Below, in pieces: positions 48,533-52,327 of a stretch of 64,000 nt of DNA. Position 1 is the first letter of the stretch; each line of letters opens with the position of its first letter. Below the pieces are notes generated by a model. It saw only the letters and a program-made list of their open reading frames with translations, was not told the DNA's origin and searched no databases. The position numbers and the translations under genes were made by a program. Origin of the DNA: Dictyostelium discoideum (Eukaryota); assembly GCA_000004695.1 (NCBI GenBank), contig CM000154.2, forward strand, positions 288,001 through 352,000, written 5' to 3'.

Positions 48533-51500
48533 TTAATTATTGTTATTAAAAATATAATTAATATGACTAATTATCATTTTTTCATTTACTTTCCAATTTT
48601 CGTTATAAGAACCAATTGACTTGAGCAAATTTTTAGTTCTCTTTGAAAGGTTTAAACCTTTATCAATATTATGTTTTTCATGGAAATCCATTGAATGGAA
48701 AGAACGGAATTTAACACATGATAAAACATCAGAATCCATGATCATTTGTCTCCATTTTCCAAAGGCGATTGGTTTACAATTATAAATTTTATTCATTGGA
48801 CCATAGATATCTTTTGGAGCAGTAATATCACCATAGACATTGTAAATATTTAATTTTCCATGATTTGATTCATCCCAACATTTGTCTGTTAATATTAAAT
48901 TCATTGTATTATCAGAGACCCAATCAACAGGAGTTAATAATACTTTCATATCAACATCTGGATAATAGCCAGTTGCATAACAACATTGAACTGAAAGTTG
49001 AAAGAAATCACTTGAAAGTCCAACACCAGTTTCTGGATGAGAAAAGATTGAAGGTGGTCTAATTAACATTGATGGAATACCTCTTCTTGCAGCTTCAATT
49101 AATAAATACTCTCCAACCACTTTACTTTGCATATAGCCAGCTGGTAAATTATCAATATTATCTAATGATGGTAAAATAGATTCATCAAATTCTTCACCAT
49201 TTAGAGATTGATTTATAAATACTGTAAAAGTTGAAAAGTTTACAATTGGTTTTTGAATTCCATTGATATGATCAGAGATTGATAATTTAATAATCTCAAC
49301 TATACCATCAACATTGACAGGTTTATTAGAGTTATAATCAGATTCTAAATTTAAATCAGCACCAGAGTTTATAATTAAATTCGCATTGTTTGCAATCAGT
49401 GAATAATCTTTATCTGATAAACCCAATCTAGCCTTTGCTAAATCACCAATAACTGGTACAATCTTTGAAAGTTGAATTTGATTCAATTGATCATAAACTT
49501 TATGATGTTTTAAATTATTAATAATTTCATTGATTGGATTTGTCGAATTGGATTTATTTCTTAAGAGACAATAAGTAACTGAACAATTTGATAATTTTAA
49601 TAAATGTACCAACATATGAGCTCCTAAAAATCCTGTTGTACCAGTTATGAAAACTCTTTTATCATTTTCTTTAACAATTTTTAAATGTTGAATTGATGGA
49701 TCCAATTTCATTTCATTCTCCCAAAATTGTTTTCTTTCTTCTTTGGTCATCTCTAATTTTGAAATTAATTTACCATCTAAAAACTCTTTATACTTTTGTT
49801 CAATTAATATAATAGAATCATTGATTGAATTATTTTGAAGTTGTTGAATTGTAACTAAATTTTTAACCTTTAAATATCTATCAACCCAATTCTTAATTTG
49901 AACAATAATTAATGAGTCTGCACCATATCTAATTAATCTTTCATTCCTATCAATTAATGATTCATCACTGAATTTTATAAATTGAGCAGATTTTTTAAAG
50001 AATAATTGTTCAAATGTTATATTACTATCATCTTTGGATGATTCATTGATTTCGATTGATTTATCACACCATTGATAAAATGGTAATTTGGTTGTATTTT
50101 TCTTGAAACTTTTATCATATCTATTTTCCCCACCAAATTGACAATTAAAATCAATATTAAAATTATTGAGATATAAATCAATTAAAGTTTTTTGAAACTC
50201 TTGATGGTGATTTTTCCTTTTATGACATGGTGAATATACTGAAACTGAATCACCATCATTAAAGTATTTAGAAGAGATTGGTATCATTTCCTTTAAATAA
50301 TTTGATAATGATGGATGTGGTGCCATTTCAAAGAATGTAACTTTTGAACCTAATTGATTATCTTCAATATATTTATAAATGTTTGAAATTGTTTCATCAA
50401 AATAAACAGGAAGTGCAATACAATTGAATAAATGAGTTGAATCGAATTTTGTTGATTCGTTATCGAAAAGTTTTGTATTAACTGTTGAAAAAGTTGGAAC
50501 TATTGGTTGTTGATGTTTAAATTTTAAATTTGTAAGATGTTCTCTTGTTTTATTTTGACTTGATGTATGACAAGATGCAAGTGAACTTAACATAGTTGCT
50601 GTTACACCATTGTTTAATAAGATTTTAGATATTTCGTTTAGATCATGTTCAGGTCCACCAATAACGATAGAATTTGGTGAATTGAAACAACTAAATTCCA
50701 CATTTGGATAATTTTCAATTGGAATAATAGATTGATATTCATTCTTTCCAATTGATAAAGATAACATTTTACCAATACCATTGGTTGAATCCTGTGCAAT
50801 TCCTCTTTGGGATACTAATAAACATGCAGTTTCTAAGTCAAACATACCAGAACAATAGGCAGCGAAAACTTCACCAATACAATGACCTACAATAATTGAT
50901 GGTTTAATACCCCAATGTTTATATAATTCAAATAATGAAATATTAAAAATAAATAATAAAGGTTGTGAAATTGTTGATTCATTAATTAAATTTGAACAAT
51001 CAGCAATTGATTTTAATTTTTCTAATGGTGAAAATCCTAAATATTTAATTAATTTTTCATTAATTAAATCTGCTGATTTCTTAAAAAAAACTTCATTATT
51101 ATACAAATCATCCATCATTGTAATATATTGTGGACCTTGACCACAAAATACAAATACATTTACAGATTCATCATCATTAATATTATTATTATTATTACTA
51201 TAATTTAAAATTGGTGAATAATTAATTGAAGTTTGAATATTCTTTAATTCATCCCAATCCTTTGCAATAATTATTGATTTTGATTTTAATTTAATTGATC
51301 TTGAATTAATTTGATGTTTTACAAAATCTTTAAATGGTATGGTTGATTGAAATTCATTGTTTTTATCTTCAATTATAATTGATTGTACTTTTTTTAAAGA
51401 ATTTATAGAATTTGCAGAGAATGGAATTAAATAATTTTGACTTTCAACTTTATAAATTAATGATGGCGATGGTTGATCTTCTTCTCTTGAAATGTTTTTG

Positions 51501-52324
51501 TTATAAATAATTTCTTTATTATTATTATAATTATTTTCAAAATGTTTTGAAAAAATGAAACTAGGTGAATGATAAGGACCATAAACAATTGTATTGAAAA
51601 TTAATTTACTTTTTGAGATATTTTCAAATTTTAAAAATGATTTAATCATTGATATGATACCAACAGATTCAGAGATTTTATTAACGGAATATCTATTATC
51701 AGTTCTTGGAATTTCTAAATCGGATATTTCATTAATATCTCTTACTGAACAATAAATATTATCATTATCAGCGATTGCATCTTCCAAACCCTTTAAAATA
51801 AATGCACCAACTTGTTCAATTTCACCATTTTTATTTCTATTTGAACCTCCAATGATTGCAATTTTTGAGTCACCAAAAAATATAGACTTATAACCAAATT
51901 TTAATGAGGCAACAATCGAACCAACACCATTGTTAGTTAAGCATTCACCTTTCAAATTGAATGCTTGAGAGACTCTTATCGAATCTGGCATTCCTGGTTC
52001 ATATTGATCTGAGCCAATCAAAACCGAAGTTTTAATTGAAGTTTGTAAATTGGTTGGATCAATATTTGCATTTTCCATTGATTCCCAAATACATTTCAAA
52101 AGGAGGATTTGTTTTTCACTAATCTTATCTTTACTCTCATCTAATTTGAAAAATAAAGAAGAATCAAATTCTTTAATTTCATTTGAAATTGAATCTGATG
52201 ACTTAATTTCTTTTAGTTCATTTTGAATTTTGTTTTCCAATAATTCATTAATATTATTTATATATGTATTGTTTTTTAAAAATCTAAAACCAACACCAAT
52301 AATTACAACATTATTACCTTTTAT

Positions 52325-52327
<3 letters not shown>
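48533..52327 (-). CDS. Truncated polyketide-synthase-like protein with the architecture KS0 (active-site Cys replaced) - acyltransferase (GHCIGE) - ACP (GADSL) - thioester reductase (TGTTGFLG ... GYMQSKVVGE); 1264 aa
   Basis: The N-terminus aligns to Dictyostelium type I PKS KS domains (LLLKCIWESMENANIDP...). Where PKSs read DTACSSSL the protein reads NNGVGSIVASL, so the nucleophile Cys is Val, and the His-motif regions are also degenerate. The AT domain has FVFCGQGPQY and GHCIGE, with Cys in place of the GHSxG Ser. The ACP has YGADSLIIVQIKNW, with the Ser conserved. The C-terminal NAD(P)-binding ITGTTGFLGAHML and the GYxxSK catalytic motif are typical of terminal reductase (R) domains. No DH, MT, ER or KR domains are present. 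This is a single uninterrupted ORF. Confidence 0.8.

Follow-up and report, generated by a model that had tools for sequence, protein, structure and literature searches.

A conserved, compact KS0-AT-ACP-R gene of Dictyostelium discoideum, derived from a reductase-terminated polyketide synthase

In KSQ loading modules, the active-site Cys of the ketosynthase (KS) is usually replaced by Gln, the full fold and both catalytic His residues are kept, and the domain decarboxylates malonyl-ACP (ACP, acyl carrier protein). The SAT (starter-unit:ACP transacylase) domains of fungal non-reducing PKSs are characterized by a GXCXG motif and a Cys-His dyad, the Cys nucleophile being their hallmark. Among the 40 polyketide synthases (PKSs) of Dictyostelium discoideum, 21 carry an offloading domain after the ACP and 19 carry none; two of the 21 domains are chalcone synthases, and the other 19 are most likely thioester reductases (PMC12828403). 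The terminal thioester reductase (TR, here R) is the usual offloading domain of the Dictyostelium PKSs (DdPKSs) (PMC12828403; bioRxiv 10.1101/2024.10.29.620908). Here, we describe a gene on a 64,000-nucleotide stretch of D. discoideum DNA (assembly GCA_000004695.1, contig CM000154.2, positions 288,001 to 352,000), hereafter the window, which encodes a dead ketosynthase (KS0), an acyltransferase (AT), an ACP and an R domain in one reading frame. Since 19 of 40 DdPKSs have an R domain, this domain is ordinary for the family, and its novelty was overstated in a previous reading of the DNA made without database searches (the sequence-only reading). The unusual part of the gene is what was removed.

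The gene is a single exon of 1264 codons plus stop in the list of open reading frames (ORFs). An exact-sequence look-up found its translation to be identical to the D. discoideum AX4 protein XP_637198.1 (EAL63693.1, UniProt Q54KA0), which is named in the database only as 'beta-ketoacyl synthase family protein'; the annotated protein equals the ORF. The intact frame and all motifs quoted in the sequence-only reading were present where that reading had placed them. The Pfam profile search resulted in four domains, namely partial KS, AT, ACP and R, and in nothing else, with no DH, MT, ER or KR match in the protein. PF00109 matched residues 7-111 only (E 2e-7), and PF02801, the profile of the C-terminal part of KS, gave no match in the protein. 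In the alignments, the DTACSSS of the paralogues falls on NNGVGSI, with V135 in the column of the active-site Cys (V, T or D among the orthologues). HGTGT falls on SVGIIS and NIGH on YGPYH, so both catalytic His motifs are gone. The KS has lost ~160 residues, and its C-terminal remnant is ~140 residues shorter than the corresponding part of Pks21. The earlier proposal of a dead KS is upheld. Judged as a type I PKS, the protein has no Cys-His-His triad, an incomplete thiolase fold and no processing domains; it shares with that class its descent, in common with the KS-AT...ACP backbone of the DdPKSs. It cannot act as a ketosynthase and has no domains for beta-carbon processing.

The missing parts were delimited by tblastn with full-length Pks21-like proteins. 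Pks21 residues 8-311 map onto the ORF at 27% identity, 451-969 at 42% and 2303-2773 at 47%. Residues 312-450 (the C-terminal half of KS) and residues 970-2302 (DH-MT-ER-KR) matched neither the ORF nor any other part of the 64-kb window nor the orthologous loci, which agrees with the absence of modifying domains proposed earlier. From the ends of the high-scoring segment pairs (HSPs) of three Pks21-like queries, the fusion junction was placed at about residues 757-767 (window ~50027-50057), where Pks21-like ~930-970 is joined to ~2300-2460. The deletion junctions are common to all species compared. Two deletions, one of the C-terminal half of KS and one of the DH-MT-ER-KR block, gave the present KS0-AT-ACP-R order. 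We also considered the ORF as a fragment of a normal PKS, with further exons hidden upstream or downstream. This was rejected on three grounds, namely that PKS remnants are absent from the rest of the window and from the orthologous loci, that the upstream sequence is a poly-A, promoter-like tract, and that the annotated protein coincides with the ORF; tblastn with full-length paralogues found nothing upstream of the gene, and no KS or modifying-domain coding was found on either side.

To place the gene among its relatives, residues 1-1200 were searched exhaustively with HMMER against 1.84 billion representatives, and 38,161 relatives were obtained. Among the best 150 of these, the sole cluster of short architecture was the gene's own orthologue group, and the next-best matches were full-length, R-terminated dictyostelid PKSs. 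The identity was 47% to D. firmibasis KAK5574557.1 (2973 aa) and 43% to the cluster of D. discoideum Pks21 (DDB_G0282029, B0G138, 2779 aa). For an R-terminated PKS locus of D. citrinum (L005; KS-AT-ER-KR-ACP-R), the identity was 47% across the linker and AT and 42% across ACP-R. In neighbour-joining trees, 167 of 200 bootstraps placed the R domain as sister to Pks21. Both halves of the protein were nearest to R-terminated DdPKSs, and the best match among solved structures was Pks16 (9nju, E 2e-70). The KS stub, KS-AT linker, AT, ACP and R are homologous to and collinear with those of Pks21 and its relatives, with 42-50% identity in AT and ACP-R. The differences are that the protein has 1264 residues versus ~2800, lacks the KS triad and DH, MT, ER and KR, carries a Cys nucleophile versus Ser and SCH versus SFH in its AT, and is encoded outside any PKS cluster. 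The descent from a Dictyostelium type I PKS assumed in the sequence-only reading is upheld: the gene is a functional derivative, by loss of domains, of an iterative type I PKS that resembled Pks21 and ended in a reductase.

The D. citrinum L005 locus itself (JBTAPK010000057.1, 5655-12067) holds its R-terminated PKS in four ORFs, and the short gaps between them may reflect introns, frameshifts or decay. About 3.4 kb downstream, on the opposite strand (15466-17197), short matches to a KS N-terminus and to an R C-terminus are separated by just ~1.3 kb and may be what is left of a PKS after heavy deletion.

The AT domain scored 102 bits with PF00698 (gathering cutoff 32.7; E 6e-29). Its nucleophile motif reads GHCIGE in all orthologues, and does not contain the serine of GHSxG, as had been noticed from the sequence. 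The nearest paralogues carry GHS, so Cys483 is derived. The catalytic His587 is retained, with Cys586 before it versus Phe in the paralogues (SFH or AFH), and this Phe-to-Cys change is derived and invariant. Because the AT of D. citrinum L005 has both GHS and SFH, the two pocket changes are assigned to the KS0-AT-ACP-R lineage. Arg508 is kept in all orthologues and paralogues, and GQGPQ (the GQGxQ motif), Arg508 and His587 are invariant. We take Arg508 and His587 to be the equivalents of R117 and H201 of Escherichia coli FabD, in which the Ser92-Arg117 spacing matches that of Cys483-Arg508. Arg at this position is typical of ATs that use carboxyacyl-CoA or have a dual specificity like that of fatty acid synthase (FAS), and it points to a malonyl-type (carboxylated) substrate or a FAS-MAT-like dual specificity, whereas the derived Ser-to-Cys and Phe-to-Cys changes suggest that the specificity has shifted.

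A Cys nucleophile is rare, occurring in three lineages among the 245 AT-bearing proteins retrieved. In a full-length PKS of D. citrinum (KAN0034461.1 / KAN0027669.1, ~2070 aa), the KS motif is intact (DTACSAS) and the only detected AT motif is GHCFGE, which makes it a second, independent Ser-to-Cys acyltransferase in the genus. Since this Cys stands in a full-length PKS with an intact KS, such a nucleophile is compatible with ordinary extender loading, and Cys alone is no sign of a non-malonyl substrate.

The carrier and the reductase are intact, as the sequence-only reading had it, and the Pfam profiles support both assignments. PF23297, an ACP of the highly reducing (HR) PKS type, matched with 62 bits against a cutoff of 27 (E 5.5e-17), and GADSL with Ser805 is invariant among the orthologues. 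The R domain directly follows the carrier and was matched by PF07993 over residues 894-1139 (168.7 bits against a cutoff of 20.1, E 1.8e-49). It has the nucleotide-binding motif, the 2'-phosphate Arg and the Ser/Thr-Tyr-Lys triad, holds Arg923 in CLLRNK and a STFTV motif, and aligns motif for motif with the solved MxaA reductase 4u7w (E 8e-33).

Full-length, four-domain, single-exon and syntenic orthologues were found in D. citrinum (81% identity), in D. dimigraforme (76%) and in two D. cf. discoideum genomes (88-92%). The common slot comprises UbiA, the KS0-AT-ACP-R gene, a ~370-aa protein and UMP-CMP kinase. In D. firmibasis, an intact frame of 1265 codons with 75% identity occupies the same slot (locus L008, 11949-15743, CM069767.1); it was missed in protein searches because of a fused gene model. 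This deposited 1604-aa model (L008 11949-17731) fuses the orthologue (frame 11919-15743) with the ~372-aa gene downstream of it (16613-17728). D. firmibasis KAK5574557.1 was considered as an uncollapsed positional orthologue and rejected, because the 1265-aa ORF fills the syntenic slot; KAK5574557.1 lies in a different, PKS-rich locus. The syntenic slot of D. purpureum contained no PKS-like sequence. The gene would have arisen within, or been kept only in, the group of D. discoideum, D. citrinum, D. firmibasis and D. dimigraforme. Proteins labelled as D. discoideum in two assemblies (ACTFIR and ACTFIW) were only ~94-95% identical to that of AX4, with T versus V in the column of the KS Cys; divergence this high for one species suggests that the new assemblies include cryptic species or that the gene evolves unusually fast.

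The ratio of nonsynonymous to synonymous divergence (ω) was estimated by the Nei-Gojobori method with 95% bootstrap intervals, and the values against D. firmibasis are given in Table 1. Across comparisons, ω was 0.07-0.13 in R (interval 0.05-0.13), 0.15-0.30 in AT (0.10-0.29) and 0.17-0.24 in the N-terminal half of KS (0.10-0.39). It reached 0.37-0.53 in the KS C-terminal remnant and 0.3-0.6 in the KS-AT linker, with values of up to 0.8 among the remnant and linkers. For calibration, the neighbouring genes gave 0.02-0.21 (UMP-CMP kinase), 0.12-0.14 (UbiA) and 0.22-0.27 (the 374-aa protein). The values for the whole gene, R, AT and the N-terminal half of KS are of an order comparable to those of UbiA and UMP-CMP kinase. 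The five-species alignment contains 33 gap blocks, all 33 in frame, with no frameshift and no stop, and GHCIGE, SQR, SCH, GADSL, the glycine-rich motif and GYMQSK are invariant in the orthologues. Every domain is under purifying selection, as all intervals lie below 1. The dead N-terminal half of KS is constrained like a folded scaffold, the C-terminal remnant and the linkers are relaxed, and R is constrained like a housekeeping enzyme. This is a real, conserved and selected gene and not a relic.

The open frame leads to the same conclusion that the sequence-only reading had drawn from it, with two corrections. The A+T content, given there as ~78%, is 74.7% in the coding sequence, and a stop is expected at a frequency of 0.092 per codon, about one in 11 codons and not one in ~20, which strengthens the argument. 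From the composition of the ORF itself, the chance of 1264 open codons is ~1e-53. The remaining five frames of the region hold 72-195 stops each, and open stretches in shuffled copies do not exceed 104 codons.

Table 1. Features of the KS0-AT-ACP-R gene in window coordinates, with the evidence for each and ω against D. firmibasis (dS ~0.7; 95% bootstrap interval in brackets)
Feature	Position	Strand	Evidence	ω
Whole gene	48533..52327	-	ORF list, exact look-up, orthologues in 5 other genomes also single open frames	0.21
A42 tract directly 5' of ATG	52328..52369	-	read from sequence	
KS0 N-terminal half, aa 1-200	51728..52327	-	PF00109, AlphaFold2 (AF2), Foldseek, ω	0.17 (0.10-0.28)
Codon V135, KS active-site Cys position	51923..51925	-	alignments to paralogues and orthologues	
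KS0 C-terminal remnant, aa 201-290	51458..51727	-	tblastn, motif alignment, pLDDT, ω	0.43 (0.24-0.78)
KS-AT linker domain, aa 291-390, with N-rich low-complexity insert	51158..51457	-	aligns to Pks16 residues 454-550	
Acyltransferase domain, aa 391-681	50285..51157	-	PF00698, pLDDT, ω	0.19 (0.13-0.29)
GHCIGE nucleophile motif, Cys483 for Ser	50870..50887	-	alignments	
Arg508, 25 residues past nucleophile	50804..50806	-	alignment	
Cys586-His587	50567..50572	-	alignments	
Post-AT linker and fusion junction, site of DH-MT-ER-KR deletion	50036..50284	-	tblastn HSP ends, low pLDDT	
Acyl carrier protein domain, aa 765-847	49787..50035	-	PF23297, GADSL, pLDDT	0.38 (0.20-0.74)
Phosphopantetheine-attachment Ser805 codon in GADSL	49913-49915	-	motif	
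Thioester reductase (R/TR) domain, aa 891-1264	48536..49657	-	PF07993, TIGR01746, 4u7w alignment, ω	0.08 (0.05-0.12)
TGTTGFLG, aa 895-902	49622-49645	-	motif	
Y1065-x3-K1069 (GYMQSK)	49121-49135	-	motif	

The AF2 model follows the same division. The predicted local distance difference test score (pLDDT) was 70-90 in the KS N-terminal half (residues 50-200), 67-91 in the KS-AT linker domain (295-375), 90-98 in AT (390-735), 69-87 in ACP (770-850) and 66-86 in the Rossmann half of R (890-990). The KS C-terminal remnant (200-294) scored 26-56 and is predicted to be unstructured, and a further low-pLDDT segment lies at residues 758-768. The Foldseek matches of the KS stub were ketosynthases, and the nearest structures to the whole model were D. 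discoideum Pks16 (9nju) and KS-AT didomains.

We lean modestly towards an autonomous load-carry-reduce enzyme, a non-condensing derivative of a PKS, because the Cys-based set of the AT, the ACP serine and the R motif set have been retained under selection. Through its Cys483/His587 dyad, the AT would accept an acyl group in thioester form, the simplest donor being an acyl-CoA, and would hand it to the phosphopantetheine attached at Ser805. Reductive cleavage of the acyl-S-ACP to an aldehyde, possibly onward to an alcohol, would then take place in the R domain, which would use NAD(P)H and act through Tyr1065 and Lys1069. The KS N-terminal half, the linker and the post-AT linker would be the structural frame that holds AT, as in KS-AT didomains, and may also serve in dimerisation.

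Several points weigh against this proposal. It is hard to see a physiological reason for reducing malonyl-ACP or acetyl-ACP. Constraint on the ACP is only moderate (ω 0.24-0.57 across comparisons), the TIGR01746 match of R (163.8 bits, E 6.7e-48) falls below the curated cutoff of 213.35, and the C-terminal remainder of R was modelled at low confidence, which we ascribe to a shallow alignment containing few R homologues. The Cys-for-Ser replacement could lower the activity of AT, though it is found in a PKS with an intact KS. Q54KA0 was not found in the proteomics supplements of the Pks16 paper. Finally, strong constraint on the KS stub is also expected if the stub docks to a partner synthase.

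Such docking is part of the alternative that survives best, which we nevertheless consider unlikely. Here the protein would be a trans-acting reductive off-loading partner, whose SAT-like Cys-AT takes the finished chain from the ACP of another synthase and shifts it to its own ACP, for release by R; the donor would be one of the ~19 DdPKSs that lack any release domain or the Pks16 FAS, and the KS stub would be the docking or heterodimerisation surface. The Cys nucleophile, being a SAT hallmark, and the derived, fixed changes in the AT pocket fit this role, but the domain is far closer to MAT-type ATs than to SAT domains and retains Arg508, which is typical of ATs using carboxyacyl-CoA. The dead KS N-terminal half at ω≈0.2 suggests an interaction surface, but the D. 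purpureum analogue described below does without a KS stub. Potential donors are numerous, as 19/40 DdPKSs have no offloading domain (PMC12828403), but no partner gene is adjacent, the neighbours being UbiA, the 374-aa protein and UMP-CMP kinase.

A second alternative is that the AT is impaired and that only ACP-R matters, the ACP being loaded by self-acylation or by an AT or acyl-ACP synthetase in trans, and KS0-AT remaining as a folding or dimerisation scaffold. In its favour, R is by far the most constrained domain (0.08, against 0.15-0.30 in AT), and the Ser-to-Cys change of the nucleophile is as rare as stated above. However, the His, Arg, GQGxQ and Cys of the AT are invariant over six species, the interval of its ω is enzyme-like, Cys is competent in acyl transfer in SAT domains, and the full-length D. 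citrinum PKS with an intact KS likewise has Cys in GHCFGE; we therefore regard this as quite improbable. A young pseudogene, neutral PKS relic or annotation fragment, which the degenerate KS, the large deletions and the faster evolution of the KS C-terminal remnant and linkers (ω 0.4-0.8) might suggest, is effectively refuted by low ω values (0.2 for the whole gene, 0.08 for R) whose intervals lie far below 1 at dS up to 0.7, by indel blocks that are all in frame and the absence of stops in six genomes, by the ~1e-53 chance of such a frame, by deletion junctions identical in all species, and by the lack of KS, DH, ER or KR coding remnants in the rest of the window or in the orthologous loci, where the flanking genes are unrelated.

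The autonomous load-carry-reduce enzyme proposed here would resemble three described systems in part. Carboxylic acid reductases (CARs) and NRPS-like A-T-R reductases such as Lys2 (alpha-aminoadipate reductase) likewise load an acyl group, carry it on phosphopantetheine and reduce it, and their R domains belong to the common short-chain dehydrogenase/reductase (SDR) family. The NCBIfam models for Lys2, MxcG and CAR matched R at E 1e-15 to 1e-31, all far below their cutoffs, the CAR model NF041592 matched the R part only (53.7 bits against a cutoff of 1300), and the PDB matches of R include the CAR entries 5msp and 5msc. In contrast to these enzymes, the loader would be an AT working on a pre-activated thioester, with no ATP, and the origin is a PKS and not a nonribosomal peptide synthetase (NRPS); no PF00501 (AMP-binding) match was found in the protein by the Pfam search, so there is no sign of an adenylation loader.

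Fungal SAT domains share with the AT the fold, a Cys nucleophile (C483), a catalytic His (H587) and, as predicted here, transfer of the acyl group to an ACP. They differ in that the AT described here matches malonyl/MAT-type ATs and keeps Arg508, that it follows a dead KS whereas SAT is N-terminal to an active KS, and that its Cys would have arisen recently from a GHS ancestor. The PDB matches to CTB1 (871-1214) and PksA (963-1159) fall in the MAT regions of these proteins. The KSQ/KS0-AT-ACP loading modules also begin with a Cys-less KS-like domain followed by AT and ACP, and the structural matches include the GfsA and PikA1 KSQ-AT didomains, whereas the present protein lacks the His motifs and half of the fold, and R follows with no downstream module. 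A bacterial-looking 2680-aa hybrid on a 13-kb contig has KS-AT-ACP-R and then a C-A-T-R NRPS module; its AT-ACP-R aligns contiguously with 29% identity, and its KS is of active type (DSACSSS).

A literature search found no described AT-ACP-R or KS0-AT-ACP-R enzyme, which is weak evidence given that most subscription journals lay outside its scope. It also found no paper that mentions Q54KA0, XP_637198 or EAL63693. The matches to 'beta-ketoacyl synthase family protein' were discarded, as they concerned Pks16 and a gene-family table.

A comparable cassette occurs in D. purpureum. DICPUDRAFT_148651 (XP_003284843.1; locus L006 10001-12600, GL870972.1) is an AT-ACP-R protein without any KS remnant, and its genomic frame is contiguous from AT through ACP to R, with intact GADSL, TGASGYLG and GYAQSK. 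The deposited model splices out ~38 codons with the Rossmann motif (SVNIFLTGASGYLGTYL...), where the genomic frame is continuous. We examined this gene as an orthologue, that is, as a product of one old collapse, and rejected it: it is not syntenic, the true slot is empty, and it grouped with the KS0-AT-ACP-R gene in 0/200 bootstraps of the R tree (36/200 in the AT tree). Both are DdPKS-derived AT-ACP-R cassettes in one frame, whereas the D. purpureum protein differs in the missing KS remnant and the genomic position, in its Ser nucleophile (SHSIGE; the GQGxQ motif is degenerate, GQVVN) and in its C-terminus, -SKL. This tripeptide is the canonical PTS1-type (peroxisomal) signal. An -SKL ending is also seen in D. 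firmibasis KAK5578246.1, a 440-aa protein with a stand-alone thioester reductase domain 43% identical to R, which could be a fragment left by gene modelling or a free reductase of the peroxisome.

The D. purpureum gene is apparently an independent collapse from a DdPKS. The recurrence of AT-ACP-R indicates that the cassette is a workable unit and that the KS stub is not strictly required. Tentatively, and with more doubt than conviction, we suggest that dictyostelid AT-ACP-R proteins may form a recurrent, unrecognised class of PKS-derived, ATP-independent counterparts of CARs, which would load an acyl or malonyl-type thioester by means of an AT, tether it and reduce it to an aldehyde or alcohol, and which would have arisen at least twice. 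The Ser-to-Cys and Phe-to-Cys changes of the KS0-AT-ACP-R lineage would then be signs of a retuned substrate pocket.

The surroundings of the gene in D. discoideum contain ORFs for UMP-CMP kinase, the 374-aa protein of no assigned function, a UbiA-family prenyltransferase and an Ank-Sec7-PH protein, and the G+C of the window is Dictyostelium-like (13-37%). As judged from these predicted products, the neighbours are in keeping with a chromosomal locus of D. discoideum and give no hint of a biosynthetic cluster. We also considered whether the gene forms a functional cluster with UbiA next to it, and rejected this: the prenyltransferase is of UBIAD1/MenA type, is spread across dictyostelids and insects, and the cluster is unsupported because UbiA holds its position in D. 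purpureum without a PKS-like gene. The A42 tract lies within ~1.1 kb of extremely A+T-rich, ORF-free DNA that reaches the UbiA gene, and this stretch looks like a promoter or 5' region. Between the two genes there is a ~120-base (ATT)n/(TTA)n microsatellite (window 53150-53290, minus-strand reading), and two copies of 'caaaatcaaattcggtgtt' stand just upstream of it (~53270-53340).

Additional observations concern the rest of the window. The UMP-CMP kinase gene (46067-46735, plus strand) is interrupted by a ~50-base intron at 46412-46462, and its two ORFs, when joined, reproduce what we take to be the D. discoideum pyrK protein. The Ank-repeat/Sec7/PH (secG-like) protein, presumably secG, is encoded at 30031-32988 on the minus strand and explains the rise in G+C at 30-32 kb. 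Of the actin profile, only about the first half is covered by an ORF of the actin family at 37955-38986 (plus strand).

The anatomy of the gene and the selection on it are clear, and D. purpureum provides a second, apparently convergent example. If the load-carry-reduce reading is true, this would be a minimal acyl-thioester reductase evolved by deletion of the chain-building parts of a megasynthase, and a naturally evolved parallel to engineered PKS-TR systems and to CARs, loaded by an AT and not by an adenylation domain. It would add a carrier-protein enzyme, seemingly uncounted in the lists of 40 PKSs, to the DiSfp-dependent metabolome, and it could bear on how products leave the ~19 D. discoideum PKSs that have no release domain. 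The Ser-to-Cys AT, selected in six species, offers a test case for the part of the nucleophile and of the residue before the catalytic His in AT specificity. Should the function prove ordinary, the gene would still be a clean case of a dead catalytic domain kept as a scaffold under measurable constraint.

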